Shown here: one piece after another, positions 3,281 to 49,790 of the stretch | Numbering within the stretch: position 1 is the stretch's first letter | How the letters are laid out: every line of letters begins with the position of its first letter | Origin: a virus | IMG/VR virus record: IMGVR_UViG_3300046779_000879 | Span: 64,001-128,000 of that record | DNA length: 64,000 bases | Direction: 5' to 3' (one strand) | The notes under the pieces: generated by a model | Database searches by the model: none | The model's input: the letters and a program-made list of their open reading frames with translations, nothing else | Told to the model about the DNA's origin: nothing | Position numbers and translations under genes: made by a program

Positions 3281-3778
3281 CTATTTTAATTTTAGTTTAA
3301 AGGCAACAGTTATTCTTAATTCTTTGCAGTGCCTTGTCGGTTCTGATCCATAATGTAGTATATTACTATTAAATAAAATTCCAGTATTGGGTTTTGGGAT
3401 ATGTGTGTATGTAATATTGTCATGATGTAAAACAGTAGCACCACCCCATTTAATATCCCAAACAGGGTTCATATAAATCACAAATGTTTTGATATCTTCT
3501 GCACGATCATCTATGTGAAAATCACCACATAAACCATATGTCTGTCCATTGGCTCGTACCGATAACAGTTCAAACTTTTGCTCAGTCATACTTTGTATTT
3601 CATTAAACACAAATGAGTTATAAAAACTATTATCAATTAAATCTATATACCAAAATGTTAAAGCATCATTGCCAGGTGCACTGTTATTAATAAATTTCCA
3701 TCCAGAACCATGCGCCAGTGCATTATATTGATCATAAAAATAGCATTCTGGAATTACATTATGATATACCTCAAACAT
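3281..3778 (-). CDS. 2OG-Fe(II) oxygenase (prolyl-hydroxylase-like)
   Basis: FHID, WDIKWGG, ILHYG, LRITVAFK. Confidence 0.85.
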   Translation of the reverse strand: MFEVYHNVIPECYFYDQYNALAHGSGWKFINNSAPGNDALTFWYIDLIDNSFYNSFVFNEIQSMTEQKFELLSVRANGQTYGLCGDFHIDDRAEDIKTFVIYMNPVWDIKWGGATVLHHDNITYTHIPKPNTGILFNSNILHYGSEPTRHCKELRITVAFKLKLK

Positions 3779-3782
3779 TATT

Positions 3783-5597: not shown

Positions 5598-6605
5598 TTA
5601 TTTTAATTTTTCTAACTCTGAATAGATTTGTTCTATCTGTGAGTCATATCTTCTACTATCGTTTTGCTCTATTAAATTAGCATATTCTATAAACAACAAA
5701 TCTTTTCTAAAAGAATCTTCATAATTATTTTTATTATATAAAAGAGTATTCATTCTATCTTTTAGTTTACAAAATTCATATACCAAAGACTCAGCATATT
5801 CACCAATTAGTTTTTTGATTTCTTCCCGTTTAACATTATCACTACCATTATATTGATAATGTTCTGTTCCATATACAGAATGATATAGTCCAGCAGCACA
5901 CACTTCTTTTGTATGTCCTAATTGCTCTAAAAGTAAAGAAACTCTATACAAATGTTCAAAAAATGTTTTTCCAGAATGTTTTAAATCAATGCTTTGTTTA
6001 AAGATAAAATCGACCTCTTCGCTTAAACAAGAATGATCAATAGTTTTAAATACTAATACACTTCTAAGTTCTGGACAAATTCTACTTAATGGTCTAGCAG
6101 AATGAAATTTATTCGAATCAAAAATTAAAACTCTATTTGGTTTTGGTAGTACAGAATATTCTATCTCATTATCAGAATTAAGAATTGTTGTTTCTCCACC
6201 CCAATCTCTATCCCAAGTTTTATTTAAATAAACAATAATAGTTTCTGTCAAAACACTAGAACCAAATTTTTTTAGAATCCAGTTATCATCTACGTGATAA
6301 TATGCATCAGTACCAAAAGTATAACCATTGATATATGATCTTAAAAGACATCGTTTACCAATTTTAGATTGAATAGCCGACCATAATAGATCTACTTCTT
6401 GATGTGATGATATAAAGGGCATAACACTATGATCATAATAATGAAATTTACTGTTGCTTAAAATGTTTTTATTCCAGTGTCCAAAGTCGTAAGATTTATC
6501 AACATTAGACTTTCCACCATAAGTTAATCCACTCTCTACATATCTTGACCTAATATTTGATATTAGGTTATCACATTCATCTAACTGCAATAAAATAGTA
6601 CTCAT
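5598..6605 (-). CDS. 2OG-Fe(II) oxygenase fused to C-terminal HD-like (DUF6817-like) domain
   Basis: YHVD, WDRDWGGET, FHSAR, RSVLVFK; then HSGKTFFEHL...AGLYHSVYGT. Confidence 0.75.
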   Translation of the reverse strand: MSTILLQLDECDNLISNIRSRYVESGLTYGGKSNVDKSYDFGHWNKNILSNSKFHYYDHSVMPFISSHQEVDLLWSAIQSKIGKRCLLRSYINGYTFGTDAYYHVDDNWILKKFGSSVLTETIIVYLNKTWDRDWGGETTILNSDNEIEYSVLPKPNRVLIFDSNKFHSARPLSRICPELRSVLVFKTIDHSCLSEEVDFIFKQSIDLKHSGKTFFEHLYRVSLLLEQLGHTKEVCAAGLYHSVYGTEHYQYNGSDNVKREEIKKLIGEYAESLVYEFCKLKDRMNTLLYNKNNYEDSFRKDLLFIEYANLIEQNDSRRYDSQIEQIYSELEKLK

Positions 6606-7285
6606 AATTGTCTATCCAATTTTTTAATAATTGGGAATACCTCAGCAATAACTTTAGCACATTCAAGTGCAACTATCTGATGTTCTTTTTGTGTACCATT
6701 TGCACTGCGTAATTCAATAAAGTGAATCCAACTACGCAGTGTACCATTCATGTATAAACGACTAACTGTATTGCCTTCTGGTAGAATTGCTCTTGCTTGT
6801 TCTTTAGCAATTCCTTGACCAATCGCCCAGTCATACGTCTTTATTACTAGTGCTAGAATTTCTCTTTGCCTGTGACGCCACTCTTCAGCAATATTCTGTC
6901 CAGCAATGGTGGCTGGTAACTCTACGCTATTTTGACGATTGGTTTCGTCTTGGAGTCTGGCTTCCCTAAGGACAAATGATAAGTCCTTGGTGGGATCTGC
7001 GTAGCGTTGGCTGAATTCTTGAAAACTAAAAGAGCGGTGACGCAAGATTTGTCTTGCGATATCACGAGTAGTTTCTATTTCTAAACACGCACTGACCATT
7101 TCTAATGGTGACCAATGGCTGTGTTTGATAAGATACTTAATTAACTTCTCTGATGTCTCTGTGTTGAACTGGTTGGATGGATTTGATACACGAGCACAAA
7201 AAGCAACTAGCTCTTGTGCGTCAATCAAACCCTCATCATACATTTCATCTGATGGTTTAGAATAACTAATCAATTTCACTTTCAC
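6602..7285 (-). CDS. thyX: flavin-dependent thymidylate synthase
   Basis: HWSPLE, RQILRHRSFSFQEFSQRY signature. Confidence 0.97.
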   Translation of the reverse strand: MKVKLISYSKPSDEMYDEGLIDAQELVAFCARVSNPSNQFNTETSEKLIKYLIKHSHWSPLEMVSACLEIETTRDIARQILRHRSFSFQEFSQRYADPTKDLSFVLREARLQDETNRQNSVELPATIAGQNIAEEWRHRQREILALVIKTYDWAIGQGIAKEQARAILPEGNTVSRLYMNGTLRSWIHFIELRSANGTQKEHQIVALECAKVIAEVFPIIKKLDRQL

Positions 7286-8307
7286 TTAACTCTCCATTCA
7301 CTAAATCTAAGTTTCGCTTCCATACCAGTATGGGTGTTTGTATTTATTACTTCGGTGATTTCATCGGCAGTCATTTCGCCATGTAAAATCATTTCATTAA
7401 TATCCTTTTGTTGTATGCTGTTTGGAAACATACATACACTAAATCCTGAATCAATATATTTTTCTAACTGTTTGACGATATCTTTATTTCTTGGCTCATT
7501 GTCCATAATGATTGTAGCGTTAGTGAGCAACTGACGAATCGTTGGTGTATCAAATGAAGCACCTGACACAGCAACAGCATTGGGTAGAAATAAAGAATCA
7601 ATTGGACCTTCCACAACCAAGATTCGTTTCGAATAATCAACTCGATCCAAACCATAAATCTTTTCCTGAGTCTCATCTACCTTAATGGTATAATACTTAG
7701 GCTCCTCATTTCCATACGCTCTACCTTGAAAAGCAAAACACTTTCCTGCTGGAGTAAAGTATGGAATAATCATACGTGGATGTTCATCAACAATTGGTTC
7801 CACAAACTTCGGTGTGACAGAGTTTACAAACTTCTTAAACTTAGCACAGAAGTAAAGCAGATGCCATTTGTCTCGTGGAATCTTTCTACTCAAAACATAC
7901 TTTACTGCAGGATGAGAAACATCAAGTGTGTCTATCCTACTTAGTGGCTCAAGAATATCATCTTCAAGCAACTCAATCTTTTCTGGTTCTGGTAGGATTT
8001 CCGATATATCTTTGTGCGCATTGTAACGAGTAGCACCAGCTTTGTATCGTTCAAGAACATACTCATCATATAATTTTGTATCAACATACTTAATTAAATT
8101 ACCAATATTGGTACTGTAGTTGCAGTTGTGGCACTTCACAAACAAGTCAGCTTCTGCACGATAAATGTACCCACGTGCCTTCAATTTATTTTTAGATGAG
8201 TCACCACACACTGGACAAGAATAGTTCCAGAGATAATCTTTTTTCTGTTTGAAATTTCGCAAGCGACTACCCAGTATTTGGGCATACTTTGCATCAATGT
8301 ATAACAT
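7282..8307 (-). CDS. 61: DNA primase gp61
   Basis: Zn finger CPVCGD..CHNC, VEGPIDS TOPRIM motif, DNEPRN, KDINEM. Confidence 0.95.
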   Translation of the reverse strand: MLYIDAKYAQILGSRLRNFKQKKDYLWNYSCPVCGDSSKNKLKARGYIYRAEADLFVKCHNCNYSTNIGNLIKYVDTKLYDEYVLERYKAGATRYNAHKDISEILPEPEKIELLEDDILEPLSRIDTLDVSHPAVKYVLSRKIPRDKWHLLYFCAKFKKFVNSVTPKFVEPIVDEHPRMIIPYFTPAGKCFAFQGRAYGNEEPKYYTIKVDETQEKIYGLDRVDYSKRILVVEGPIDSLFLPNAVAVSGASFDTPTIRQLLTNATIIMDNEPRNKDIVKQLEKYIDSGFSVCMFPNSIQQKDINEMILHGEMTADEITEVINTNTHTGMEAKLRFSEWRVK

Positions 8308-8330
8308 AATAACTCCACATGTAGGATACA

Positions 8331-8359
8331 ATTATACCCTACATAACATTATAAAACAA
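8331..8359 (-). promoter_or_regulatory. sigma70-type early promoter
   Basis: TTGTTT-N17-TATAAT upstream of primase. Confidence 0.7.
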
Positions 8360-8361
8360 GT

Positions 8362-8718
8362 TTATTTCAGAAAATTTGCAATTTCTGAGATATGACCAAG
8401 AATAAATCCTAAAGTTGCAGCACCACCGATTACATACCATTTCCACTGCTCTAATGCACCAACTCGCTTTTCCATTTTCTCTATATCTTCAACAACATCT
8501 TTACGTATTTCTTCATGTTGAGTTTGCGAGATTTGAGCATTTGCATTCATCTTATGCTCAATGCGTGTTTGCATATCGTCAATCTTATCAACGATCTCTC
8601 TATTAGATGTAGTAATACGAGAGTGGATCTCTTTAATATCAGATTTCAACTCTTTGACATCCTCTTTAATAGTTTCTACTTGCGCTTCCAATTTAGCTAG
8701 TCTCTCTGGCGAATCCAT
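8362..8718 (-). CDS. coiled-coil protein with C-terminal TM helix (XhlA-like, possible holin/lysis protein)
   Basis: Heptad coiled coil followed by WKWYVIGGAATLGFILG; adjacent to spanins. Confidence 0.55.
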   Translation of the reverse strand: MDSPERLAKLEAQVETIKEDVKELKSDIKEIHSRITTSNREIVDKIDDMQTRIEHKMNANAQISQTQHEEIRKDVVEDIEKMEKRVGALEQWKWYVIGGAATLGFILGHISEIANFLK

Positions 8719-13942: not shown

Positions 13943-16219
13943 TTAAAATACGCTAGGCTGTGAACCTTGAGTATACTTTGAGTGAGACATACGTGCCTTC
14001 TCAACTTTACGAACACGTGGAGCAAGACGAGTGGCAATACGTCCAATAAGTGCTTTACGTTGTTCTAATGTTCTTTCGATTCTTTCTTTCTCACCAACAG
14101 AAAGTTTACTCGCATCACGACCACGTAGTAGACGTTGCTTCATTAGTTTAATTGCAAGGCGACGTGCACGTTTGTTAATTGTTGCAGTGTTTGAGTAACG
14201 CTTCAACGCAATTTTAGTTGCACGTTCACGTTTTGCTGCAGTGCGACGAATACGGAACTTTGCTTTCATTCTTTCGATACGAGAAAGGACTTCCATGATT
14301 GCTTGTTCATCAAGAGCATCTTCTTCAGGTGACTTTGGAATCTCTTCGCCAGTTTCATCATCGACTAAACCAAGTTCGTCTTCACCGTACTCGTCCATAA
14401 TTTCTTCGTCAGAAAGATTACCAATCATGGCTTCGATTTCTTTATCATCGATATCATCTTCTTCTGATGTTTCTAGAGGAGTATTTGGAGTGGCAACTTC
14501 AATCGTTTGATCTTCTTCTTTAAAGAATGGATCAAATGTAGGTTTTAGTTGAGTTTGATCAATTGATTTATCGTCACAAACACATGGAGATTTTTCGCAT
14601 TCTTCACAAATATCATCTTCAAATTCTATTTCTTCACCAATTGCTTTTCTTAACCCACGAATGGCAAAATCATGCGATTTTAAATGCGCTGGACCTGCCC
14701 ATTCTCCTGAATGTTTCCTTAAAGAATCTCTCTCTTTAGTTAAATGATGTATAATTTCTTTTGTTTTAGAGGTGCCATGCTTCTTTGCTATGTCAGAGTA
14801 ATTAGACTGTCCTTTGATATGAGTATCATACACTGGCGTAGTAGAAGATTCTTTTAATCTTTCTCTCTCTGACTTTTGCTTGTTTGCTAAAGATTCTTTT
14901 TCTTGTGCATGTTTAGCCATTAGATTTGCTTTGGCAACTTCATTTGACTTTGGATCAGGAGTGCTATTTTCTGCAACACTTTGCATTTTTGATAAGAAAG
15001 ATTTAGCAAGTGCCTTTTGTTTGGCAGTGTGTTCTGGATCTGTTTCAATATGTTGAGCAGTTAATTCATGACCACCTTCTTTACCGTAAGTAGTCATACC
15101 TTTCTTCATAATCTTTTTAGCGATCTCAAAACCATGTTGTTCACCAAGATGATATTTAACTTTACGACGACGTAGATTATCTTGACCACCTGGAGATACT
15201 AAAGTGTGTCCAACTTCTCTTTTATCTGCTGCATGTGAATCATAGTCAGCATCAATATCAGACTCGTTATCTTTCTTATGGTCAGCTTGAGATTCTTTAC
15301 CTTTGTGTTGCTCTTCTTTAATCTTCTGTGCCTTAGTGTAATTATAGAAAGTGATCATTCCCTTCTTCACTGTTTTCTCGGGAAACTTACCAACTTCACT
15401 GGTTGGTTCAGAAGTCTTGGTATCGATCTTGTCTGTACCATTTGGTTGAATTGGTGCTTCTGTTAGGTTTGATTCGTTCATTTCTTTTTCTTCTGTAGGT
15501 TTAACATCTTGAATCCATTTGGAAATCAATTTGCCTGTTGATTCTTTTAACAACAAATGATTAGAGCCACGCTTTACAATTGTAAATTTCTCACCATTTG
15601 ATTCTACGATATCACCTTCGTTAAAAATTTCACCACGGAAATACTTCTCACGCAGTTTATCTTTAACCAAGACTATCTGTTCTTTAATAGGCTCAAGACC
15701 TAGACCAGTACGCATCTCATTCATTAGACGTTTACCATCAATATCACGAATGGTGCTTGGTAATCTCTTTTTAAAGTTTTCGTAGATACCCTTTGAAGCA
15801 AACTGCCTCATTTTAGTATTGTCTGCTTCTGGATCTTTATCTACAGGAATAAGTTCTACATTCTGTAGCTTACGCATTTCTGTGATTTGATCAGTTCCAG
15901 CAACAAGGATAATCTTCTTGTACTTCTTATGTAACTCTGTAATAACTTCTTGTAGATTTGATTCGTTGAGTGACTTAAACTTAGTCTTAGGGAACATTAG
16001 ATTAAGGTAATGTTCCTTTTTGTCCTCTTGAATCAGACTATTTTTAGATGGGGATGTATAGATAACGTGTGCGGAACTCTTCTGTTCTGCCAGTTTTTTG
16101 ACTGTCTTTACCAATAATTCGTGACCAACAGTCGGAGGGTTAAATTCTCCAACTGCGCATACAATGGTATTGGACGGTAGTTCTCTGATTAACTGTTTGT
16201 AATCTTTCATTTTATCCAT
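13943..16219 (-). CDS. cytidylyltransferase-like domain protein fused to head-protein segments
   Basis: GEFNPPTVGH (HIGH-like), LREKYFRGEIF module, acidic linkers, basic C-terminus. Confidence 0.65.
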   Translation of the reverse strand: MDKMKDYKQLIRELPSNTIVCAVGEFNPPTVGHELLVKTVKKLAEQKSSAHVIYTSPSKNSLIQEDKKEHYLNLMFPKTKFKSLNESNLQEVITELHKKYKKIILVAGTDQITEMRKLQNVELIPVDKDPEADNTKMRQFASKGIYENFKKRLPSTIRDIDGKRLMNEMRTGLGLEPIKEQIVLVKDKLREKYFRGEIFNEGDIVESNGEKFTIVKRGSNHLLLKESTGKLISKWIQDVKPTEEKEMNESNLTEAPIQPNGTDKIDTKTSEPTSEVGKFPEKTVKKGMITFYNYTKAQKIKEEQHKGKESQADHKKDNESDIDADYDSHAADKREVGHTLVSPGGQDNLRRRKVKYHLGEQHGFEIAKKIMKKGMTTYGKEGGHELTAQHIETDPEHTAKQKALAKSFLSKMQSVAENSTPDPKSNEVAKANLMAKHAQEKESLANKQKSERERLKESSTTPVYDTHIKGQSNYSDIAKKHGTSKTKEIIHHLTKERDSLRKHSGEWAGPAHLKSHDFAIRGLRKAIGEEIEFEDDICEECEKSPCVCDDKSIDQTQLKPTFDPFFKEEDQTIEVATPNTPLETSEEDDIDDKEIEAMIGNLSDEEIMDEYGEDELGLVDDETGEEIPKSPEEDALDEQAIMEVLSRIERMKAKFRIRRTAAKRERATKIALKRYSNTATINKRARRLAIKLMKQRLLRGRDASKLSVGEKERIERTLEQRKALIGRIATRLAPRVRKVEKARMSHSKYTQGSQPSVF

Positions 16220-20989: not shown

Positions 20990-22210
20990 TTATTTCAGCT
21001 TGAAAGAGCCAGCGATTCCCTTGTGAGCACCTGACGAGGACTTCAGAGTGTAGCGAGCCACAGTCATAGTCTTACCAGATTCTCTATGTTTACCTTTGAT
21101 TGTTAAAGTAGTTCCAGCTCCAGGAGCAACGTGTAATCCTTCAAACTTCGCTAAATGTTCATCTGCTAAAGTATGTGATGGTTTGATAATAGAATCTGCA
21201 GAACCATCGTTCTTAACTTTACTATGAGCAACATAGTGAGGGATATGAGTTGGAGGAGATACGTTTCCTCTAATAACATCTCTTAGTTTAGCATCATCAT
21301 GTTTTGATAACGCATTAGCAAAGTCAGCAGTAGCTGCAGTGCGTGCTGCAATATTAGATGAACGAGCCAGCTCTGCACGCTGTTTTGATTTTGCTAAAAA
21401 CTCTGCTTGTTTCTTCGCTGGTAAACTATCATGTGCTTTAACAAAAGCAGATAGTTGTGCATGCATAATTTTGTTTTTACCAGATAGTGTTTTACCTGAA
21501 GCCAAAGCACCTTCGTGTTTAGCGTGTTCTTCTCTGGCTTTATCAATACCCATCTCATCAATCTTGGTCTGCATATTTCTTTGATCAGCAGAACCATGAT
21601 GTCCCAAAGCATCCATATGTTCTTTATGGATGTCCATATGCTTCTGTAAAGTTCCAGGTGGTAGTCCAGCAGTTTTCTCTAAAGAATCAACTCCAGGATT
21701 ACGATAGTTTGGTTCTTGTGAACCATACTTGGCAGAGATACCAATATGTCCAACTGGTTTACCATCTTTATGTAATGTAGTAATTAAGTCAGCATTAGAG
21801 TTTACGTCTTTGACACCAACAGTTTTCTCGTGGTCACCAGCGACGTTAGGTTTATCTGCGTTAGATGTCCAATGAACATTACCAATTGTAATTCCGTTAC
21901 CTGTATGTCCATGTTGATCAAGTTGTTTCTTAATATGTTCAGCAGTTTGTTTAGCGTGATTATCAATCTCAGCGTATGCAGCTGGACCAATCTTTTGTTT
22001 CAAACGATCATGCACTTGCTCAGGAGTTCCTGCGTGGTCTTCGTTATCTGAAAATGAACGATGATGTTCTGGCAGAGTAGTTGCTGGGTGTAGATGTTTT
22101 GCTAAAAGCAACTCATGCATCTTACCTTTGTCATCTGCTTCCAGATCTGATGTTTCTGCTTTCTCTAGCAGTAAAGTTTCTTCTTTAAGAAATGATTTAA
22201 AATTTAACAT
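20990..22210 (-). CDS. capsid-targeted protein with probable PD-(D/E)xK-like fold
   Basis: MLNFKSFLKEE CTS-like start; GKMHE..NADLI..GISAK. Confidence 0.5.
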   Translation of the reverse strand: MLNFKSFLKEETLLLEKAETSDLEADDKGKMHELLLAKHLHPATTLPEHHRSFSDNEDHAGTPEQVHDRLKQKIGPAAYAEIDNHAKQTAEHIKKQLDQHGHTGNGITIGNVHWTSNADKPNVAGDHEKTVGVKDVNSNADLITTLHKDGKPVGHIGISAKYGSQEPNYRNPGVDSLEKTAGLPPGTLQKHMDIHKEHMDALGHHGSADQRNMQTKIDEMGIDKAREEHAKHEGALASGKTLSGKNKIMHAQLSAFVKAHDSLPAKKQAEFLAKSKQRAELARSSNIAARTAATADFANALSKHDDAKLRDVIRGNVSPPTHIPHYVAHSKVKNDGSADSIIKPSHTLADEHLAKFEGLHVAPGAGTTLTIKGKHRESGKTMTVARYTLKSSSGAHKGIAGSFKLK

Positions 22211-23016
22211 TACGCAAATGCCTCAATTAGTTGTTTGTTGTGAACAGTATTATAAAGATTCTCATTGATAGTAACATTAGAAGCACTAGTAACTGGTGCT
22301 ATGTTATAATGTGATTTAGTCATTTTACTAAACTCTAAAGTCATAACAAATTGATAATCTCCACCACCTTTATTTTGACAACGAACTCTAATTCTAGCAG
22401 AGGCAATGTCAGAAAAATCAGGAATTTTATCTTTGAGTTTAGTGTTTAACTTTAATGGATCTCTTTTATTTAATAGATAAAAACCATGGGTGCCAACATT
22501 AATATATGAACACTTTTTGGTATTATAGTAATCACAAATTGCTTTAGCTGGTATATTAATATGAACTTCATTCTCTCCGCTGAACTGTTTGATGTCCTCT
22601 TTATAGGCATCAACTTTTGTTTTACCACTTGGAATTATTTTCTTACCTGACTTATCATTTTGTAGAAATGGAACTTTACCTCGCCAGTTTCTACCAGCAG
22701 TTCCAGATACATTCATCTCGTTAAGTAGTTTGTATTTGTTACCTAAAGCAACTAGTAATTCTTTCTCTGGGTCACCTTTGGAATCTCCATATGCCCATTG
22801 ACCATCTGTATACTTTAGAACTAAAGAACCTGCTGCGGTGGGAGCAATTTTCATCTCACACCCCTCTCGATTGACTCCAGTTTTATCTCTTACTAATTTG
22901 ATCTCTAAATCTGGACGATCTGATGATGCGCCAGCATGCCCTATTCCCGCACTGATGCCATATTTCTTCAGTGCAGTCCATGCATTCGCTTCGTATTGAA
23001 AACCTTGTTGCGCCAT
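22210..23016 (-). CDS. putative PD-(D/E)xK nuclease
   Basis: GFQYE..RPDLEI..CEMK. Confidence 0.55.
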   Translation of the reverse strand: MAQQGFQYEANAWTALKKYGISAGIGHAGASSDRPDLEIKLVRDKTGVNREGCEMKIAPTAAGSLVLKYTDGQWAYGDSKGDPEKELLVALGNKYKLLNEMNVSGTAGRNWRGKVPFLQNDKSGKKIIPSGKTKVDAYKEDIKQFSGENEVHINIPAKAICDYYNTKKCSYINVGTHGFYLLNKRDPLKLNTKLKDKIPDFSDIASARIRVRCQNKGGGDYQFVMTLEFSKMTKSHYNIAPVTSASNVTINENLYNTVHNKQLIEAFA

Positions 23017-23045: not shown

Positions 23046-23762
23046 TTATTTAGGTCTTCTGGATGCCCTAATAGTTCTTTCGTATTTGCGTTCCCACTTA
23101 CCCACTTGCTGGATAATCTTTTGAATAGCGTGGTTATTACGATAATCGTAATTGAAAGCCTTGAGGATGTAATGGAAGGTATTTGAGTCTCGCTTCGTTT
23201 TGGATCTAGCGAGTAATTCTGACACTGGTACATTTGGTTTAAACATCTTATAGTCTAAAAATATACAATGTGCATATGCTTGAATCTCATCAAACTCTGA
23301 CAGATATCTTCTCTCTGCGTCTTTTTTGACTTGACCTATTTTTTTGTATGGAACAATGTAGTTGCTCCACTCATCATCACGTCTATCGTATTGCATAAAG
23401 TGGATTAATTCATGCATTTCTACTTGAATTAGTTTAAACTTAAACCTTTCCCATGAACGAGGGGTGAATGGGAAAGAGTCGTAGTGTTCAGTGTGAATTT
23501 GTAAAATACACTGTCGAGTTTCTGGATCGTACTCTCCACCTACAGCAACATGTGTCTCAAAGTACTTGGCTTTGGACTTTTCTTTGAACCAAACTACTTT
23601 AGTTCTCCACTTTCTAAAGTAGTTTGATAGACCTTTGGAATCGTTGCGATACTTGTCTAGGTCTACCCATATTTTCGCAGGGTTGAACTTAGCCCTAAAT
23701 GGACGCTCGTAAAAATTGAGCATTTCCATCCAGTCATAGTTTGATTGTTCTAGGAATTTCAT
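23046..23762 (-). CDS. putative zincin metallopeptidase
   Basis: MHELIHFMQ (HExxH) with downstream EIQAYA. Confidence 0.6.
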   Translation of the reverse strand: MKFLEQSNYDWMEMLNFYERPFRAKFNPAKIWVDLDKYRNDSKGLSNYFRKWRTKVVWFKEKSKAKYFETHVAVGGEYDPETRQCILQIHTEHYDSFPFTPRSWERFKFKLIQVEMHELIHFMQYDRRDDEWSNYIVPYKKIGQVKKDAERRYLSEFDEIQAYAHCIFLDYKMFKPNVPVSELLARSKTKRDSNTFHYILKAFNYDYRNNHAIQKIIQQVGKWERKYERTIRASRRPK

Positions 23763-23782: not shown

Positions 23783-24388
23783 TTACCCTAATTGACCCTC
23801 TAAAAAGGTTAGAACTTTCCCCTGCTCCTCTAAGTTAGTGTTTGCAAACTCAGTAATATAGGACATCAATTCGAAATTAGATAATAGATTACTATATTTA
23901 GTCTCTCGCCCTCTTAGGAATTGTTCAGATTGGTCTGAACCACGATCAATATAACGCTGTTCTAGGATCTCTTTAGGTGCTTTGAGATAGACAATCTGTA
24001 GGTCGGTATTCGGTAGACCCATACAGAACTCTAGGAATGACTGATTAAAAACTCGATCTCCTTCGAAAAGAATGTTACAGTTATGCGTCTGGATCCACTC
24101 TTGTAGGTTCGGCTGGACTGCCATCGAAAGGCGATCTGTTCCAGCGAATGTTTCGCCATCTTCATACTTACCTAGAATGTAAAGATCTCGCTCTGTATTA
24201 TATGAAGCTGAAACTAACTTGGCAGGTTCAGTGGCAATCCACTGCTTGTTTTCCATAAACTTACGGAACAACGTAGTCTTGCCAGTTCCAGGTGAACCAC
24301 CAACTGCGATAATCTTTCTAGTCTTCATAGGTTTAGTAATTTTCTGAACAGTAATGGTATCTAAAACACCAAGTTTTTCATTAAGCAT
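23783..24388 (-). CDS. P-loop nucleotide kinase, 5-hydroxymethyluracil-DNA kinase-like
   Basis: GGSPGTGKTT Walker A, LGKY..GTDRLS, FEGDR; gene context. Confidence 0.8.
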   Translation of the reverse strand: MLNEKLGVLDTITVQKITKPMKTRKIIAVGGSPGTGKTTLFRKFMENKQWIATEPAKLVSASYNTERDLYILGKYEDGETFAGTDRLSMAVQPNLQEWIQTHNCNILFEGDRVFNQSFLEFCMGLPNTDLQIVYLKAPKEILEQRYIDRGSDQSEQFLRGRETKYSNLLSNFELMSYITEFANTNLEEQGKVLTFLEGQLG

Positions 24389-24767
24389 GTTTCGCTTCCT
24401 CAAGTAATTTCTTTAGCTCATCTTCTGTAAATACCCATACACGACCAATAAAGTGATGTACGTCTGCATCGACATCTCGTTTCTTAGTGAAAGATGTTTT
24501 TTTAATTATCTCTCTTGCAAGATTGCGAGACAAGTTTTCTTTAATCTCATCTGCATATGTTGGAACAGTATCTTTAAGTTTCATCAACTCAAACTCTGTA
24601 ACTTTATGCTCAACAGTCAGAAGATTTAACTCATGTCGTTCCATCAAATCTTCTACAGCAGTTGGTGGTACAGATATCGTTCCATAAGTTGTAGCAGAGG
24701 TTTTGATAGATCCAACAGTCAGTGAATCAATAGGTGTAGTAATAGGTGTAGTAATAGTAGTAATCAT
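24381..24767 (-). CDS. hypothetical protein inside the modification operon
   Basis: Overlaps both neighbours. Confidence 0.6.
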   Translation of the reverse strand: MITTITTPITTPIDSLTVGSIKTSATTYGTISVPPTAVEDLMERHELNLLTVEHKVTEFELMKLKDTVPTYADEIKENLSRNLAREIIKKTSFTKKRDVDADVHHFIGRVWVFTEDELKKLLEEAKHA

Positions 24768-25783
24768 GCGAACATCTCCAATCCATTTAATATAGGTTCT
24801 TCATCATCGAACAGCCACTCTAGATTTTCTAGACGACCTGTTCTTACAAAACTTGAAAATCTTTCTTTATCAATACCACGTTTGTGGTCTAAACGCAAGT
24901 CAATTGTTTCTTCTCTAGCTTGCCATAAAACATTCCAGTCAATACCATACCATCCATCGGACTCAGCTTTGATAATTTCTTCTGCTTGTCTATCAAGATA
25001 GTATCCAAGATACCTTCCGTGATTCTCTCTAAAGATTTTCTTAAAAGAACACAGACAGGTTTCCATGGTAAAGTAATCTATACTCGATGAGAGTTCTGGA
25101 AATCTCGCTTTCGTCTCTGCAAGAATCTCTTTGGCTTGTGACTCAAGATTTCCATACTCTGATGCAGTGAGTTTTCTATCCACACTGTCTTCTTGTCCGA
25201 TGGCATAAAGTAATCCATTACGATGAGAGCGAGAGCCATCATAATCGTCCAGCATGAGAGAAGTAGGATTGATCCGAACACCAGCGGTATGCTTAAGATG
25301 CTGAAGATAAAACCAAGTACTGTAACGACCAAACTTATGCAAGCCAGACTTAACGCTTTGCCACAAGTTATCAAAGTTCGCTTCCTCATTGTGTCCATAG
25401 TAACTTTCCAATCTCTCTCGTTGTGTTCTTCCACCAATAAATTGTTGATAAGATGCGAACATGGCTGGAAGATGTCCCTTGTTCCATTTTGTGTCAGTCT
25501 GATAACGCAGACGTTTGTAGTTGGTTGTGTTCCACTGAGTGGTTCTGTCCACTGTGGCAAGTTCAAAGTCAGGAAACTCATTCATTAATACCCATGCAGT
25601 TGGGAGTTGATATGTGTTACCATATAACCAGCATAACCAAAGTTTCTGCTCATCATTATGTTCATATCGTTTGTTGAGATAGTTCGTACACCAAACTGCT
25701 GGATCGCAGTCATCATACTTTAATGACCACACATACCAACGAATGAACGCTTCCCTACGATTTTGTTCTAAGCGATAATCCAT
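24764..25783 (-). CDS. alpha-glutamyl/putrescinyl thymine pyrophosphorylase clade 2 (amino acid:DNA transferase)
   Basis: DCDP, FGRYSTWFYLQ HhH-like motif, ETCLCSFKK, GRYLGYYLDR. Confidence 0.8.
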   Translation of the reverse strand: MDYRLEQNRREAFIRWYVWSLKYDDCDPAVWCTNYLNKRYEHNDEQKLWLCWLYGNTYQLPTAWVLMNEFPDFELATVDRTTQWNTTNYKRLRYQTDTKWNKGHLPAMFASYQQFIGGRTQRERLESYYGHNEEANFDNLWQSVKSGLHKFGRYSTWFYLQHLKHTAGVRINPTSLMLDDYDGSRSHRNGLLYAIGQEDSVDRKLTASEYGNLESQAKEILAETKARFPELSSSIDYFTMETCLCSFKKIFRENHGRYLGYYLDRQAEEIIKAESDGWYGIDWNVLWQAREETIDLRLDHKRGIDKERFSSFVRTGRLENLEWLFDDEEPILNGLEMFA

Positions 25784-26424
25784 TATACTAAAAATTCTTC
25801 AAGCGAGGGTTGTTCCATTAATGCATCACGCAACCATGCTTTACCGACAGCGTCAATTGCTGCTTGCGTTTTTGCTTTCTTTTTGTCTCCCCACTTATAT
25901 GTTTCTAATGCTTCCGAACGGAATTGATCTCTTGCCTTATAAGGTGGCAGAGCCGAGATTGGATTTGCGATAGCAGCAGCTCTAAATGCGAGTTGCTCAT
26001 TACGAGTGGGGAATAGAGTTTGGTCAGAGCGGAGACTACCTGTGGGGTCAACTGCCCAGAAGATGAGACCATTTCTGTAATGCCAAGTGACTGAAGATGG
26101 CGTACAAGATATTTTAAGTCTTTTAGATTTTCGCTCTTCAACTGCATACCTAATCCAAGATTCCCAACATTTGCTGGCATATCCATTTCCCTCTTTCCCT
26201 TCCAACGTGACTATTTCATACAAATTGGCATATCCATCACGATTGTGTGTGGCAAAAATTAAAGAAACAACTTCTCCATTAACTTCATACGCAAGCGGAG
26301 GTGCTTTGTCATAGTTATGAAAGCGATACCACAATGAATGTGCAGCCGATAAGAACTTGGTGTTCTTACCAGCTGGACTAGTTTTAATTAACTCTTCAAC
26401 TCTCGTTGAATTAACAAAGTTCAT
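25783..26424 (-). CDS. GNAT acetyltransferase
   Basis: NLYEIVTLEGKEGNGYAS acetyl-CoA motif A; WHYRNGL. Confidence 0.75.
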   Translation of the reverse strand: MNFVNSTRVEELIKTSPAGKNTKFLSAAHSLWYRFHNYDKAPPLAYEVNGEVVSLIFATHNRDGYANLYEIVTLEGKEGNGYASKCWESWIRYAVEERKSKRLKISCTPSSVTWHYRNGLIFWAVDPTGSLRSDQTLFPTRNEQLAFRAAAIANPISALPPYKARDQFRSEALETYKWGDKKKAKTQAAIDAVGKAWLRDALMEQPSLEEFLV

Positions 26425-27103
26425 ATTGTAAGTCCACCGCATCTTCAATGACTTCTTTTTCAATAGTCATTGCGAGTTGGTCATCAAATGTAATGTAATG
26501 ATTCATCAAAGTATGAATCGGCAATCCTGGAACTTCTGCTCGTTTTGGAACATCAGCAGTAGAAGTAATTATACAACCATTTGAGATATTTGTCAAGTAT
26601 AATGGACGCTTACCATTGCGATAGAATCTAATAACTTTATCAACATGCAACTCAATTACTGCAAGACTAGAATCTTTCCAACGAACCAATGGACTAATAC
26701 AATCTTCTGCCGTATGCAAAATCAATTCAGTATCGTTTTTAGTTTCGCAATCATATCCATAGAGTTCTTTCCATTTCTCAGGCAACTCTTGAGTAATAAC
26801 TCCATTGTGGACTACCGAAAGATTCTCATTGGCGATGGGTTGATTGAATTCTAAGTCACTGGTACTATAGCGACAGTGACCAATTAGATAAAGACTACCA
26901 TCTTCATTGACATAACTCGGAAAGTTAAATGGAAATTGATCGGCAGGTACTGGTCGCTTCTCAGTGATAATCTTTCCATGTTTAACATAGGAGATTCCAG
27001 TGGCATGCATCCCTCGAATCTTAGACTCAAGGAACACACGATGAAGCATTAAGAAATCCTCGGCACGAGGTTCTTTAATAATTGCTCCAATGACTGAACA
27101 CAT
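26411..27103 (-). CDS. stand-alone class II glutamine amidotransferase / Ntn hydrolase
   Basis: N-terminal MC, RGMHATG, GHCRYST, NQP, HNGVI, NDTE. Confidence 0.88.
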   Translation of the reverse strand: MCSVIGAIIKEPRAEDFLMLHRVFLESKIRGMHATGISYVKHGKIITEKRPVPADQFPFNFPSYVNEDGSLYLIGHCRYSTSDLEFNQPIANENLSVVHNGVITQELPEKWKELYGYDCETKNDTELILHTAEDCISPLVRWKDSSLAVIELHVDKVIRFYRNGKRPLYLTNISNGCIITSTADVPKRAEVPGLPIHTLMNHYITFDDQLAMTIEKEVIEDAVDLQYELC

Positions 27104-28428
27104 TAGAAGAATCCTTCAAGTGAGTTTGACTTTTGCGATTCTGGATGATACTTCATCAATGTATCGTGTCCAAGTTTACTCTCAAGATATTCATACCACT
27201 CATCAGATTCCCACATTGAAGGGCTGACACCATTCCAAAGATGTCGCTGAGAACCATCTTCATATTTTTGATCTGGGTGTTCTTTGTTAAGTCTGCGTTG
27301 TTCAACAAAGTCATAACGGCAGTCTTCGTATTGTTTAGAACCCAACTCAAGCATTTTCTCACGGAAGTAAACAACCAATGAGATTCGTTCTGCTTCTTCA
27401 TCAAGCAATTCAATCTGAGTATTGCCATGCATAACTTCATGGTTGTTAATTAGTAGCAAATCTCCAGGTCTTGGATTGACAGCAACACGATACTCTGGTG
27501 CAACAAGATAACATCCTTTGTAGTTACCATTGTTTGTTAGAGTCAACAGATTTGATAGACCAGAAGTTAAGTCACCTGCATCGTAGTGACATGCAGTTCT
27601 GAAAGATTTATTAACTGTAATAGTAGTAAATGGAGTTCCAGGAACTAAGAATGCAGGATCTAGTTTCTTTGCTGCTTCCATTTGATTATTGTATCTCCAT
27701 GGCAACAAGTCTTTGAAACCTTGCGCAAGTTGCTGGAGGAATGGATATGACATGGCAAACTTTACTGGCTCACGAGCAGTATAAGATGTTGCACGACCAT
27801 AAGGAATGCGAGGATAACGATCGAACCATCCAGCAATACCAGACATAACACCATTGGCATAGGTAGTTGCACAAACATATGCTTTCTCTACTCGTCTGGC
27901 TTCAGCAATCATTTCAGATGCATCTAATTTACGAACTTTCTCGACCCATTCATTGAAGACAAAATTGTCTTTCTTAACTGCTTGAATACCCCAAACATTA
28001 TTTCGTGTAGATGGTTTGTCAGTCTTACCTTGATGTTTGGCTTTAATGGCTTCAATTGGATCTCCATCCAAAGATGCTTTTGGGTTTAAGAAGTAGTCAA
28101 TGATTTCTGATTCATATTCAGTGACCCATTCACGATTACCCAATTTCTCTGCTCTTGGACCTGCAGCCATACCTCTGTTTTGAGTTTCAGTTGCAGCCTC
28201 ACGCAAACCAATGTATGCTTGATCTTGTTGTTCCTTTGTAAAATAATTCTTACGGAACTTCAGAACAATCCTTTCTTCAGAGTATGTCAACTCTGGATGT
28301 CCAGGAATTTCTGGCATATAAACATCACAGTCCTCTTCAATGAGGAAATCATAATGAGACTCATCAGGAAATTGTCCCAACATATGAGTCATATCATGTT
28401 TCTGTTTTGCTACGATTACCTTAGTCAT
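27103..28428 (-). CDS. TET/JBP-family 2OG-Fe(II) DNA pyrimidine dioxygenase
   Basis: FTTITVN..TACHYDAGD (HxD), MHGNT (H), ERISLVVYFRE (R). Confidence 0.85.
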   Translation of the reverse strand: MTKVIVAKQKHDMTHMLGQFPDESHYDFLIEEDCDVYMPEIPGHPELTYSEERIVLKFRKNYFTKEQQDQAYIGLREAATETQNRGMAAGPRAEKLGNREWVTEYESEIIDYFLNPKASLDGDPIEAIKAKHQGKTDKPSTRNNVWGIQAVKKDNFVFNEWVEKVRKLDASEMIAEARRVEKAYVCATTYANGVMSGIAGWFDRYPRIPYGRATSYTAREPVKFAMSYPFLQQLAQGFKDLLPWRYNNQMEAAKKLDPAFLVPGTPFTTITVNKSFRTACHYDAGDLTSGLSNLLTLTNNGNYKGCYLVAPEYRVAVNPRPGDLLLINNHEVMHGNTQIELLDEEAERISLVVYFREKMLELGSKQYEDCRYDFVEQRRLNKEHPDQKYEDGSQRHLWNGVSPSMWESDEWYEYLESKLGHDTLMKYHPESQKSNSLEGFF

Positions 28429-28436
28429 ATTCTCTC

Positions 28437-29837
28437 CTAAAACTTAAATCCATTAAAACTCTCTGTACTATGTATGCGTTTGCCAAAAGCAGATTTATCA
28501 AACATTGGACCATCATCTTTATCTTGACCAGCATCAGACAAACCAGTCTGTGCAGACGCTTCAACATCATAGAGTTTCATCTTTGCTCTATCAATCCCAA
28601 TTACGAATCTCTTGTAGAAACTTGGATCGTTATAACGATTCTTTAATTGCTTAACGATAATCTGATTTAACTCCTCAAGTTCTTCGTTGCTGACCAAAGC
28701 AAACATAAAGTCAGCAGTTGCAGGCAGACCAAAAGATTCAGATGTATCTTCAAGTCCTGGATCGCTGTTAGTGAAACCACCACGAGTAGTTTGAGTGGCA
28801 GATACAATTGGAACATTATACTCAACTGCTAGACCACGCAACTCTTCAGCAATGCTCTTAATATATGTATAAGAGTTAATACTTCCACCTTGTTTCATTC
28901 TTTGACTCGCACAAATATTCAAATAGTCAATAAAAATAATATCAGGTCTAAACTCTTTCTTCAATTTCAATTCTTCCAACAAAGCACGGAAGTGACCAGC
29001 ATGAGCACCAGCAGTTGGATACTCTTTGATGATAAACTTACCTGTACTCTTTTTGGCGATCTTATCAATTCTAGTTTCGTAAATATCTCTATCAATAACC
29101 TTCAACTCGTCCATGGTCAGATTTAACAGATTCGCATCAACACGTTCAGCGATTCGTTCTTCTGCCATTTCCATAGTTATGTATAAGGCATTTTTACCCT
29201 GCGTCAAAACTCCTGCAGCCATGTGACACATGAACAATGATTTGCCAACACCAGTACCAGCCAATGCGATGTTTAGGGTTTTCTTTGAAAGTCCACCCTT
29301 GGTGATTTTATTGAACATGTCAAGGTCGAAAGGAATCTTCTCTTCAACCCTGTGATAAAAATCAAACCTCGCATGATGGTCATCGATGTAGTCATGACCA
29401 ATGTGATTATCAAAAGAAACAGCCAGTGCGTCAGATAGAATAGAAGGAATCGCATCTTTAGAATTTACCTTATCACCACCATCAATAATTTTAATCGAAC
29501 CTAAGATGGCATTATAAACGGCACGATCCTTACAAAACTTCTCAGTGTTCTCAAGCATCCAGTCTTCGTTGACTGGTTCATGAGACATTGTGTTGATATA
29601 CTCAGTTAGTTCAGATAATTCTTTATCTGTAAGATCCTTACGATTCGAAACTTCAATCGTAAGAATTTCTTTTGTGGCTGGTTTGTTGTACTTGCTGAAG
29701 AAGTCTACAAGTTCGTTTGCTAGGATTGCTTCTTTTTTATCCGAGAAGTATTCTCGTTTGATAAATGGGATTACCTTACGGCAGTACTGCTCATCATAAA
29801 TCAGATTGCTCAGAATTTTTTGTTCTATTCTCATCAA
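28437..29837 (-). CDS. 41: replicative helicase gp41
   Basis: AGTGVGKS, IDYLN, SATQTTR, QLKNRY. Confidence 0.97.
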   Translation of the reverse strand: MMRIEQKILSNLIYDEQYCRKVIPFIKREYFSDKKEAILANELVDFFSKYNKPATKEILTIEVSNRKDLTDKELSELTEYINTMSHEPVNEDWMLENTEKFCKDRAVYNAILGSIKIIDGGDKVNSKDAIPSILSDALAVSFDNHIGHDYIDDHHARFDFYHRVEEKIPFDLDMFNKITKGGLSKKTLNIALAGTGVGKSLFMCHMAAGVLTQGKNALYITMEMAEERIAERVDANLLNLTMDELKVIDRDIYETRIDKIAKKSTGKFIIKEYPTAGAHAGHFRALLEELKLKKEFRPDIIFIDYLNICASQRMKQGGSINSYTYIKSIAEELRGLAVEYNVPIVSATQTTRGGFTNSDPGLEDTSESFGLPATADFMFALVSNEELEELNQIIVKQLKNRYNDPSFYKRFVIGIDRAKMKLYDVEASAQTGLSDAGQDKDDGPMFDKSAFGKRIHSTESFNGFKF

Positions 29838-30126
29838 CTCCGCCTGTGTATGTCAAATTATTTCGTTCAATACCTTCATAGATTAACTCTTGTAGAATAT
29901 CTCCAATATATTGCTCGAATGATGCTTTATCGGTTAAATCTTTATCATCGTCATCAATGATATCATATTCGAAACGAAGATGAATATTATCAGTTGTTTC
30001 ATTTTCATCGAATTGAACTTTACCGTAAGTATAGATTATACCCTCAAAAGCACCTTCTGTCAACTTTATTGCTTGGAGTCCATCTTGTTTAGAATCCAAC
30101 ACAACGTAACGTGGGTTACTCATCAA
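29794..30126 (-). CDS. conserved T4-like hypothetical protein
   Basis: GIIYTYGKV..YIGDIL; lies between uvsX and 41. Confidence 0.65.
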   Translation of the reverse strand: MMSNPRYVVLDSKQDGLQAIKLTEGAFEGIIYTYGKVQFDENETTDNIHLRFEYDIIDDDDKDLTDKASFEQYIGDILQELIYEGIERNNLTYTGGVDENRTKNSEQSDL

Positions 30127-47362: not shown

Positions 47363-49549
47363 TTAGGCTACTAATGCAACGAATCGGTTAAGTAGGACTC
47401 GGGAAGTCTTCTTTACATTCAAATACTTACCGAAATTTTTTGCAATTGCTTTAGCATTAGCATTTGCATTCACATCAAATTCACCCTCTTGAATCTTGGT
47501 AGAAGATTGTGGAATCAAGAACAACTCATCACGACCAGTGTTTTTGATAGAAGCAAATCCATTTACTCGAAATTCTTTTTTCCAAGTTTCAACTAATGAA
47601 TACACATCACCATTGTAGTTAGGTAGATTTGAATTCAAGACACCACGTAAATCACGACCACGATTAGCACAAATATGAAATCCAACCATTGCAATATTAT
47701 AACGATCTTTCATCATTCGAAGAATCATTTCAGTCTGCTCACCTGCTCTGCGACTAATCTCATAGGTTTTCTTAGTAACTTCATCTTTGATAAAGTTCTT
47801 AATCTTAATTCGTTTGTAGATATTATTAACAACTTCAGTACGAGTGTCCTCCAATCTACCACGAGAGTACGAATTTAATTGACCACCTTCACCATCAGTA
47901 AGAGTGATAAAAGTAGTTTTCTCGACGTTGTTGTTCTTGATAAATGCACCCAATGTATTATAGCAATATACCAATGCTTCATTTAAGGGAGTGCCACCAG
48001 TATTATATCCATCATTCCATTGAAAACGATAATCAAGAATACGACGTGACATTGAATTGAATTCGCTGGTAGTCATTTTGTTACTGAATAATTCTAATAG
48101 ATGAAATCTGTCTGCACAGTCAATCAAGTCATTTTCTTCTCGCCTTGCAGATCTCCAAGCATGATACGCTTCACGTTCTTCTTGAGATTTAGCTAACTTG
48201 TCGTCATAGTCAGTGGTGAATGCATACACACGATATGGAATCTGAACACGATTGCAGAACATAGCCAAGTTAATAACTTGCTTCATTGTATCTTTCAATA
48301 CATCATTCATTGAACCAGAATAGTCAACAAGAAGAACCATACCATGATTTTTACCTTGCGGTAAAGAAGTCACACGTTTAAACAAATCATCTTGCAGTTT
48401 ATATGCATAAACTTTCTTCATGTCCAACGAACCAATCTTTGATACTGTTGCACGCTTATGCATCTGTGCAGACTTCTTCATCTCGAATTCTTTCACGAGA
48501 TAATTTACAGTACGAATAGATTCTGTTTTAAATTTAATGAAATCAGCTAACTCGGCAGTTTTAAAATTAGCCTTGTCTTCTTCAGACATGTAGCGAGTGC
48601 GATAATCAGTCAATTCAGGATTGTCATCATCCCACTGTTCAGGTGCTTTAGTTTCGTTGAGAACTTGTTTGTAACCAATAACTGGATCTCTGAAATAGTC
48701 TGTATCAAATTTCCAATATTTGTATTCGGTAGAATCATCAGCAAGGTCTTCCAATTTGTTTTGGAATGCTCTTTCTGTTTTTGATTCTAAGTCATCACCC
48801 TCTTCTGACTTTTCGTCATTTTGAAAAGCAGATTGTTTGTTTCGTTTAGCTGGTTTCAGATCTTCGACATCACCATCTTGTTCTTCAAAGTCATCATCAT
48901 TATCGATGTCAAAGTCACCATAAATTGGATCTTCGTTTTCATCTTCGCCATCATCATCTTCCAGTTCTTGGAAGTTGGCATTTTGTTTACGCTCTTCGGC
49001 TACTTGTTTAGAATATGCATAGATATCGTTTGCCAATGCAATAATGTCATCGACAGTCTCAGTGCGTTCAGCACGATTCACAAATACCTTTTCATCAGGT
49101 GTGAATGTTACACCACACTGGAAACCAGCTTTAAAGTAAAGATTGATTTTGTCAATAAGTAACAAGTCATCGAAAGACTGGACTTGTTTCGTGCCAAAGA
49201 AGTCACGATCATTGAGTTGCTTATATCCTTCGTTCATGCGTTTACGCAATCCTGGATATTTGCGTTTGATAAGTTTCTCGATACGAACATCTTCTAGGAC
49301 ATTCATGTATGAGTGTAACTTAGGGGTATTCTTTAGGGGTTCAAGATATTCATTGTTGGTGTAAAGGGCATGACCCACTTCGTGACCAATTAACATATCT
49401 TCAATTTCGGGAGTCATATCTTTCCACATCGGCAAAGTCAACACACGTGACTTGATGTCGAAAGATGCAGTGCGAGTTCTTGCTCTAATAACTGAAAGAT
49501 TTTCAGTGGCAAGAAGACGTGCGGAGAGGTCTGTTGCTTTCATTTCCAT
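47363..49549 (-). CDS. metallopeptidase-VWA protein (CobT-like partner)
   Basis: HEVGH, NVLEDVRIE, acidic linker, DYSGSM MIDAS, GGTPL, LTDGE. Confidence 0.88.
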   Translation of the reverse strand: MEMKATDLSARLLATENLSVIRARTRTASFDIKSRVLTLPMWKDMTPEIEDMLIGHEVGHALYTNNEYLEPLKNTPKLHSYMNVLEDVRIEKLIKRKYPGLRKRMNEGYKQLNDRDFFGTKQVQSFDDLLLIDKINLYFKAGFQCGVTFTPDEKVFVNRAERTETVDDIIALANDIYAYSKQVAEERKQNANFQELEDDDGEDENEDPIYGDFDIDNDDDFEEQDGDVEDLKPAKRNKQSAFQNDEKSEEGDDLESKTERAFQNKLEDLADDSTEYKYWKFDTDYFRDPVIGYKQVLNETKAPEQWDDDNPELTDYRTRYMSEEDKANFKTAELADFIKFKTESIRTVNYLVKEFEMKKSAQMHKRATVSKIGSLDMKKVYAYKLQDDLFKRVTSLPQGKNHGMVLLVDYSGSMNDVLKDTMKQVINLAMFCNRVQIPYRVYAFTTDYDDKLAKSQEEREAYHAWRSARREENDLIDCADRFHLLELFSNKMTTSEFNSMSRRILDYRFQWNDGYNTGGTPLNEALVYCYNTLGAFIKNNNVEKTTFITLTDGEGGQLNSYSRGRLEDTRTEVVNNIYKRIKIKNFIKDEVTKKTYEISRRAGEQTEMILRMMKDRYNIAMVGFHICANRGRDLRGVLNSNLPNYNGDVYSLVETWKKEFRVNGFASIKNTGRDELFLIPQSSTKIQEGEFDVNANANAKAIAKNFGKYLNVKKTSRVLLNRFVALVA

Positions 49550-49556
49550 AATATAT

Positions 49557-49721
49557 TTATTCCCCAAATGCAAATTCATGTTCAATAAGAGTCAACTCAT
49601 CTTCAATCTCTTTACGATTGATAAGACTCAAGTCACCTGCAAAAAGTAAGCTGTCTTCAATGCCATACTTTCCAGCCAGTTCTGCAATTTCAAAATCACT
49701 AAAGTCTTTCCACATATTCAT
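49557..49721 (-). CDS. 54-aa acidic early protein (not in the ORF track)
   Basis: MNMWKDFSDFEIAELAGKYGIED...; AGGAG RBS just after the promoter. Confidence 0.65.
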   Translation of the reverse strand: MNMWKDFSDFEIAELAGKYGIEDSLLFAGDLSLINRKEIEDELTLIEHEFAFGE

Positions 49722-49740
49722 CTCCTATCCAATAGAGTGA

Positions 49741-49769
49741 ATTATGCATCAAAACTGAATAAAAGACAA
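49741..49769 (-). promoter_or_regulatory. sigma70-type early promoter
   Basis: TTGTCT-N17-CATAAT; box CCCTACAGAACTGAGGG at 49809-49825. Confidence 0.7.
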
Positions 49770-49790
49770 CTGTTTTATTTTTCCCTGTAA

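Follow-up and report, generated by a model that had tools for sequence, protein, structure and literature searches.

A long, ParB-less form of phage TET/JBP dioxygenase predicted to hydroxylate thymine in DNA

The virus record IMGVR_UViG_3300046779_000879 (IMG/VR; 163,642 bp, CheckV completeness 100%), from a lake phage, encodes a 441-aa TET/JBP dioxygenase that most probably converts thymine (T) to 5-hydroxymethyluracil (5hmU) in DNA after replication, a reading that we draw from the genes present in and absent from the genome and from analogy to tested enzymes. The gene lies in the 64,000-nucleotide stretch of DNA that was analysed (the window), which spans bases 64001–128000 of the record; positions below are those of the window unless stated otherwise. 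A first-pass annotation of the window had proposed a post-replicative thymine hydroxylase, and support for that proposal now comes from the complete HxD...H...R catalytic site, the TET fold and the genome-wide pattern of nucleotide supply. That a phage TET/JBP enzyme can stand in for a dUMP hydroxymethylase by making 5hmU on DNA has already been predicted, and is experimentally established as a class. What differs here, judged by sequence comparison, is the form of the enzyme, a structurally distinct long one without ParB.

The TET/JBP enzyme and its thymidylate supply

Membership of the 441-aa protein in the TET/JBP superfamily is secure. Its open reading frame (ORF) matched the Pfam profile Tet_JBP (PF12851) at an E-value of 1.6e-26 and 92.9 bits, above the cut-off of 34.9, and matched phrog_24024 end to end (E 5.9e-157). 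Residues H281, D283, H334 and R348 were invariant in an alignment of 37 sequences, and phmmer aligned them with the HxD motif, the distal His and the 2-oxoglutarate (2OG)-binding Arg of TET2. The AlphaFold2 (AF2) model of the enzyme had a predicted local distance difference test score (pLDDT) of 91.2. Structural comparison using VIA-align gave a Z score of 20.4 for TET2 (root-mean-square deviation 3.7, 265 aligned), followed by CMD1 (17.9), CcTet (17.6) and NgTET1 (17.2), with AlkB-type structures next at ~13; the top Foldseek matches were all TET-family, at E 1e-10 to 1e-8. Orthologs in the phages DLP6 (L001, KU682439.2) and Cr30 (L002, KF301602.1) are annotated as 'SNF2 DNA repair protein'. 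This label found no support, Pfam giving the window ortholog Tet_JBP and TauD only; our guess is that it was carried over from JBP2.

Six-frame searches of the whole genome returned no candidate for PF00303, the ThyA family that takes in hydroxymethylases of dUMP and of dCMP as well as dCMP methylases, and none for PF00145, the C5-cytosine methyltransferases (C5-MTases). With the Cr30 ThyA as query, tblastn and phmmer likewise found nothing in the genome (best E 0.92 and 0.16, respectively). The lack of both families had been noted from the window, and it holds across the complete genome; the ThyX gene noted with it was confirmed (Table 1). The remainder of the genome supplied a dCMP deaminase (genome positions 49381–49788, outside the window), which together with ThyX and ribonucleotide reductase (RNR) constitutes the phage's own route to ordinary dTTP. 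Because the ThyA family and C5-MTases are absent, while ThyX, dCMP deaminase and RNR are present, post-replicative oxidation of T to 5hmU is the best reading of the enzyme: with neither of the two absent families to supply another, thymine would therefore be the sole abundant 5-methylpyrimidine on which it could act.

Relatives showed the same pattern. Records with diverse long-form homologs (45–73% identical; n = 50, of which three are complete genomes of 160–197 kb) yielded no C5-MTase (0/50) and no ThyA-family gene (0/50). Three cultured phages, DLP6, Cr30 and C48C1, with orthologs 41–49% identical to the window enzyme (49% for DLP6), bring the related records to 53, and no C5-MTase was found in them either. 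Among these three phages only Cr30 has a ThyA, which appears canonical.

The TET gene is the head of a tightly packed operon, translationally coupled to genes of kinase and transferase families. The six genes directly downstream encode a class II glutamine amidotransferase (GATase) of the N-terminal nucleophile (Ntn) type, a GNAT-type acetyltransferase, an amino-acid:DNA transferase (AADT or ADDT, formerly alpha-glutamyl/putrescinyl thymine pyrophosphorylase, aGPT-Pplase), a 128-aa protein (u128), a P-loop kinase and a 238-aa protein (u238). Their stops and starts overlap or abut, beginning with the amidotransferase start, which overlaps the TET stop. From the helicase gene directly upstream of TET through u238, the gene order was kept in ~80 IMG/VR loci at 77–98% identity; within close relatives the GNAT protein was 79–96% and u128 52–90% identical. 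In 80 more distant long-form loci (45–73% identity), a GATase followed TET in 43, ADDT was found in 38 and the kinase in 33, with u238 in 16 and u128 in three. The transferase is closest to the 'alpha-glutamyl/putrescinyl thymine pyrophosphorylase clade 2' of ViI-like phages (27–30% identical). Cr30 carries TET and homologs of the transferase and kinase within 9 kb, and the DNA of DLP6 is listed as restriction-enzyme resistant in a review table (PMC8228603), which lends weak support.

The partner genes on which the first-pass annotation had leaned are real, and Lee et al. (2021) demonstrated action on 5hmU in DNA for the families of both the kinase and the amino-acid:DNA transferase (PMC8989533). 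The same study described a group of IMG/VR/GOV contigs without dUMP hydroxymethylase that encode TET_JBP, predicted to convert thymine to 5hmU in DNA (PMC8989533). Burke et al. (2021) reported that TET89 oxidises ~10% of T in E. coli (PMC8256090), and O'Toole et al. (2026) established phage T-dioxygenases in vivo as well as in vitro (PMC13229309). Oxidation by the latter is partial and motif-selective, at NTC/YTY and NTG/NTR (PMC13229309); the earlier expectation of partial, sequence-selective modification was correct in kind. That the window enzyme oxidises T is argued by analogy with such enzymes: its core is ~46% identical to a 288-aa enzyme whose locus runs ParB-TET-ADDT-GNAT-kinase, an arrangement for which oxidation of T has been demonstrated (PMC13229309).

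One long-form locus without the kinase and transferase (L189) instead has a GT1 glycosyltransferase gene directly after the TET gene (positions 7290–8624 of that locus, plus strand). This arrangement suggests that other T4-like phages may make a base-J-like glycosylated 5hmU. The kinase/transferase module and the GT1 module both need a hydroxymethyl acceptor, and so support a hydroxymethyl base made by the TET enzyme.

In the mechanism that we propose, ordinary dTTP would be made through RNR and through dCMP deaminase followed by ThyX, and replication would put T into the DNA. The TET/JBP enzyme, dependent on Fe(II) and 2OG, would then flip out T in the DNA polymer and hydroxylate its C5-methyl group, so forming 5hmU; probably only some of the T, those within a favoured sequence context, would be affected. 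Going by family membership and the biochemistry of homologs, the co-transcribed P-loop kinase would phosphorylate the 5hmU hydroxyl, and AADT would put a nucleophile, either an amine or an amino acid, in place of the phosphate. More speculatively, the Ntn-amidotransferase and the GNAT protein may supply or tailor the added group; glutamine-derived NH3 could, for example, yield 5-aminomethyluracil, which might then be N-acetylated.

The long form and ParB

A search of cluster representatives revealed two forms of the enzyme, of ~440 aa and ~300 aa, the short forms being 40–47% identical to the core of the window enzyme. Published phage T-dioxygenases fall into two groups, Clade C2, which is independent of ParB, and Clade C1, which depends on it and is 'consistently linked' to enzymes of three kinds (GATase, P-loop kinase and AADT), and a 'variable insertion' at consensus residues 73–118 controls the dependence on ParB (PMC13229309). 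Our comparison with Clades C1 and C2 uses these published descriptions of the 5-methylpyrimidine dioxygenases (5mYOXs).

Short-form records were frequently linked to ParB: 36 of 50 had a ParB_N match at E<=0.01, and in 24 the match exceeded the cut-off. For two examples (L133 and L139) the match lies in a ~210-aa ORF directly upstream of TET, and the locus of another short form (P0171) has the order ParB_N-TET-ADDT-(FAD-like)-GNAT-kinase. By contrast, none of the 50 long-form records had a ParB_N match over the cut-off, and three had weak matches. The window's whole genome gave no ParB_N match in a six-frame search at E<=1, no phmmer match among all its ORFs to the ParB from a related locus (L088), and nothing in a simple GxRR motif scan for ParB.

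The long form carries two segments that the short forms lack. The first is an 81-residue insertion that directly follows the TxNRGxAAG motif, maps between residues 82 and 83 of P0171 and falls inside the published variable-insertion region. Every long form has it, even at 28% identity, and its R, W, R, VW and F do not vary; folded alone, it gave a small helical domain (pLDDT 84.7). A comparison meant to reveal a hidden ParB-like or DNA-binding domain in the insertion gave no meaningful match in the PDB (best VIA Z 3.2, best Foldseek E 2.8), a result that neither makes the fold new nor means that it differs from all known ones. The second is a C-terminal extension, which reaches ~60 residues beyond even the ParB-linked short forms and has WNGV...MW...EW motifs conserved in long forms. 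We infer that the long forms make up a lineage that lacks ParB and is akin to the ParB-dependent class; in this lineage the insertion may supply the function otherwise given by ParB.

Could the enzyme be a T-dioxygenase that still needs an activator in the role of ParB, one that went unrecognised, such as u128, u238 or a host factor? We consider this unlikely. In its favour, the closest short forms are the ParB-associated ones counted above, and among 5mYOXs a C-terminal extension has been reported for the ParB-dependent ones only; some members of Clade C1 that lack ParB also showed no activity when assayed in E. coli (PMC13229309). Both small proteins are in the operon of close relatives, with the thinner representation in the wider loci given above. 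The negative ParB searches tell against such an activator, in the window's genome as in the long-form records, and so does the placement of the insertion, which sits where a swap abolished the ParB dependence of 5mYOX176 (PMC13229309).

We tentatively propose, as a possibility held somewhat short of even confidence, that the ~440-aa enzymes of T4-like phages (phrog_24024) form a third subclass of phage thymine dioxygenases, sister to the ParB-dependent one. They would have kept its toolkit, the insertion and C-terminal extension would replace the ParB activator, and a route through the Ntn-amidotransferase would lead to a thymine derivative made unlike that of any characterised pathway.

Substrate and timing of the oxidation

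Several points weigh against a post-replicative thymine dioxygenase. Residue Asp286, three positions past the Fe-binding Asp, aligns to TET2 N1387, a position which we take to contact N4 of 5-methylcytosine (5mC) in the TET2 and NgTET1 structures. Some of the ParB-less Clade C1 members were inactive on T and on 5mC alike in E. coli (PMC13229309). Characterised phage T-dioxygenases oxidise 5mC in vitro also, so specificity is not readable from sequence; a reading of substrate specificity from Asp286 was rejected on the same ground. Finally, P-loop kinases and aGPT-Pplases are present in 5mC/TET contigs too (PMC8256090).

The substrate might instead be 5mC installed by a host methyltransferase, with the cluster hypermodifying cytosine. 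We judge this improbable. It can draw on the TET fold that 5mC oxidases share, on the alignment of Asp286, and on the kinase and aGPT-Pplase genes of some contigs with both C5-MTase and TET (PMC8256090). Yet C5-MTases co-occur with only 6% of mined 5mYOX pathways (PMC13229309). The complete genome and the 53 related records lack a C5-MTase, the genome has no dCMP-methylating or dCMP-hydroxymethylating ThyA homolog, and few sites would be host-methylated on fast-replicating phage DNA.

Still harder to credit is entry of 5hmU before replication, for example through ThyX or TET/JBP action on dUMP or dTMP, with TET/JBP left to further oxidation or a role on RNA: the ThyA-family dUMP hydroxymethylase required is absent, the window ThyX has the standard RHRxxS motif, we know of no ThyX-type hydroxymethylase, and the TET/JBP enzymes in the cited literature all act on DNA polymers. 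Its one precedent is that cultured phages with characterised thymidine hypermodification all use the 5-hydroxymethyl-dUTP (5hmdUTP) route (PMC5889632, PMC8989533). Oxidation of thymine in the DNA polymer is the reading that we retain.

Gene neighbourhood, relatives and known systems

Nearly all window genes are on the minus strand (Table 1). The TET gene lies within a T4-type replication module, in which the gp41/DnaB helicase gene is followed further upstream by UvsX and a family-B DNA polymerase; NrdA, NrdB and ThyX are at lower window coordinates than the TET operon. A megablast search with the cluster as query, against 50,697 phage records, gave no match, and relatives were found at the protein level only.

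Table 1. Features of the TET/JBP locus and its enzyme, with window positions
Feature	Position	Strand	Basis
TET/JBP (5-methylpyrimidine dioxygenase, 5mYOX), 441 aa, long form	27103..28428	-	Pfam PF12851, phrog_24024, AF2 fold
81-residue insertion of TET/JBP, residues 93-173	27910..28152	-	alignment; absent from ~300-aa relatives
Catalytic core of TET/JBP: H281-x-D283 (27580-27588), H334 (27427-27429), R348 (27385-27387)	27385..27588	-	37-sequence alignment
C-terminal extension of TET/JBP, residues ~380-441	27106..27291	-	gap in every short form in alignment
gp41/DnaB-type replicative helicase, directly upstream of TET	28437..29837	-	DnaB_C; phrog_19 E 4.9e-128
Class II (Ntn) glutamine amidotransferase, stand-alone, 230 aa, N-terminus MCSVIG	26411..27103	-	GATase_6 E 4.1e-10, GATase_7; Cys2 nucleophile in translation
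GNAT-type acetyltransferase (match weak); probably starts at the ATG at 26424	25783..26463	-	Acetyltransf_1 21 bits, cut-off 20.7
Amino-acid:DNA transferase (AADT/ADDT, formerly aGPT-Pplase)	24764..25783	-	PF18724 E 1.6e-23, 84.1 bits, cut-off 26.2
u128, 128-aa protein without family match, within operon	24381..24767	-	profile searches
P-loop kinase, 5hmU-DNA kinase type, Walker A GSPGTGKT	23783..24403	-	Ploopntkinase3 PF18751 E 1.2e-6, 28.6 bits, cut-off 27
u238, 238-aa protein with HELIH (HExxH) motif	23046..23762	-	translation
ThyX, flavin-dependent thymidylate synthase	6602..7285	-	PF02511 E 5.9e-44; RHRSFS motif

The P-loop kinase also drew a phrog_800 label, 'terminase small subunit', which appears unrelated to kinase function. 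The HELIH motif of u238 is metalloprotease-like, and the protein was found downstream of the kinase in relatives at 61–91% identity; it had no Pfam match, and Atlas gave viral hypothetical clusters only, with a weak SprT-like lead. Beside the cluster lies a gene for a 268-aa basic protein (22210–23016, minus strand), found in few of ~160 related loci (L040, L041, L058, L064 and L216), and it looks like a mobile or accessory insertion adjoining the cluster. Pfam searches at E<=1 and Atlas gave no usable match for the 238-, 268- and 406-aa proteins.

Some close relatives have extra DNA within the cluster, perhaps small genes that were inserted there, homing endonucleases for example. It amounts to ~0.6 kb between TET and GATase in L011, L012, L056, L060, L065, L078 and L082, and to ~0.7 kb between GNAT and ADDT in L028–L030, L037, L039, L041, L043, L045, L058 and L060. 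On one metagenomic contig, two 396-aa TET/JBP paralogs stand in tandem (L092:3840–6198, plus strand).

Elsewhere in the window, two more 2OG-Fe(II) oxygenase genes (2OG-FeII_Oxy_3), at 3281–3793 and 5598–6605 on the minus strand, lie on either side of the RNR/ThyX block. A DUF6817/HD-like domain is fused to the second, and both are unrelated to TET/JBP by family. A 758-aa protein (13943–16219, minus strand) had a weak N-terminal match to cytidylyltransferase-like proteins, and the large proteins neighbouring it had DUF matches (DUF6267, DUF6321/DUF5824) or no family.

Two perfect sigma-70 consensus sites (TTGACA-17-TATAAT, 12/12 positions) were noted on the coding (minus) strand, at 30063–30035 upstream of the helicase and TET genes and at 26596–26568 within the GATase gene, upstream of GNAT; in total, promoter-like sites were no more numerous than in shuffled sequence. 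Freshwater metagenomes from several studies contain the stretch, and metatranscriptome contigs from four freshwater studies matched the TET and GATase genes at 90–99% identity. We did not accept these contigs as proof of expression: because they stem from relatives, and DNA may be included among them, they do not demonstrate transcription.

The enzyme family is very abundant in freshwater and marine T4-like phages, with 2,613 proteins at E<=1e-5 and 1,467 cluster representatives at E<=0.001. It unites the toolkit of the ParB-dependent class, the lack of ParB, and an extra conserved domain at the site controlling ParB dependence, and its long forms amount to a natural experiment on the activation of T-dioxygenases. 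Two relatives are culturable and open to direct DNA chemistry: Caulobacter phage Cr30, which carries TET together with AADT and a kinase, and Stenotrophomonas phage DLP6, whose DNA is restriction-resistant.

Among known systems, Clade C1 (5mYOX176/ParB176, PMC13229309) has in common with the window enzyme the TET/JBP fold, the HxD...H...R site, the GATase, P-loop kinase and AADT partners, and the lack of a C5-MTase. The window enzyme has a C-terminal extension, a possible counterpart of that of 5mYOX176, and the ~300-aa enzymes to which its core is 40–47% identical are those of ParB loci. It differs from Clade C1 in that its genome and the 50 long-form relatives are without ParB, in the 81-residue insertion, and in its length of 441 rather than ~290–300 aa; its gene, moreover, lies within the replication module of a ~160-kb T4-like myovirus. 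Clade C2 (5mYOX89/97) resembles the window enzyme in that the latter, too, presumably works without ParB, and in some long-form relatives a glycosyltransferase comes after the TET gene, an arrangement also seen with C2 enzymes. C2 enzymes are nevertheless ~290–300 aa long and linked to glycosyltransferases, methyltransferases and endonucleases, whereas the window enzyme is linked to a GATase, a kinase and an AADT.

The phage TET 5mC-dioxygenases of Clades A and B (TET43; PMC8256090) belong to the same superfamily and share its chemistry and the priming of DNA for hypermodification, but they adjoin a C5-MTase and act on Gp5mC, and the window genome has no C5-MTase. The phages ViI, M6, PaMx11, SP10 and PhiW-14 (Lee et al. 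2018, 2021) likewise combine a 5hmU-DNA kinase, an AADT and tailoring enzymes, acetyltransferases included. Those phages make 5hmdUTP by a ThyA-family dUMP hydroxymethylase and incorporate it at replication, whereas the window phage is without the hydroxymethylase, has a predicted DNA-level dioxygenase in its place, and encodes a stand-alone Ntn-GATase.

The kinetoplastid JBP1 and JBP2 of base J synthesis provide the parallel outside phages: there too a TET/JBP domain converts T to 5hmU in DNA after replication, and the hydroxymethyl group is then decorated. The JBPs are eukaryotic proteins in which a J-binding or SWI2/SNF2 domain is fused on, and what they produce is glucosylated; in the window phage, by analogy with characterised homologs, the kinase would instead activate the hydroxyl and the amino-acid:DNA transferase would carry out the substitution.

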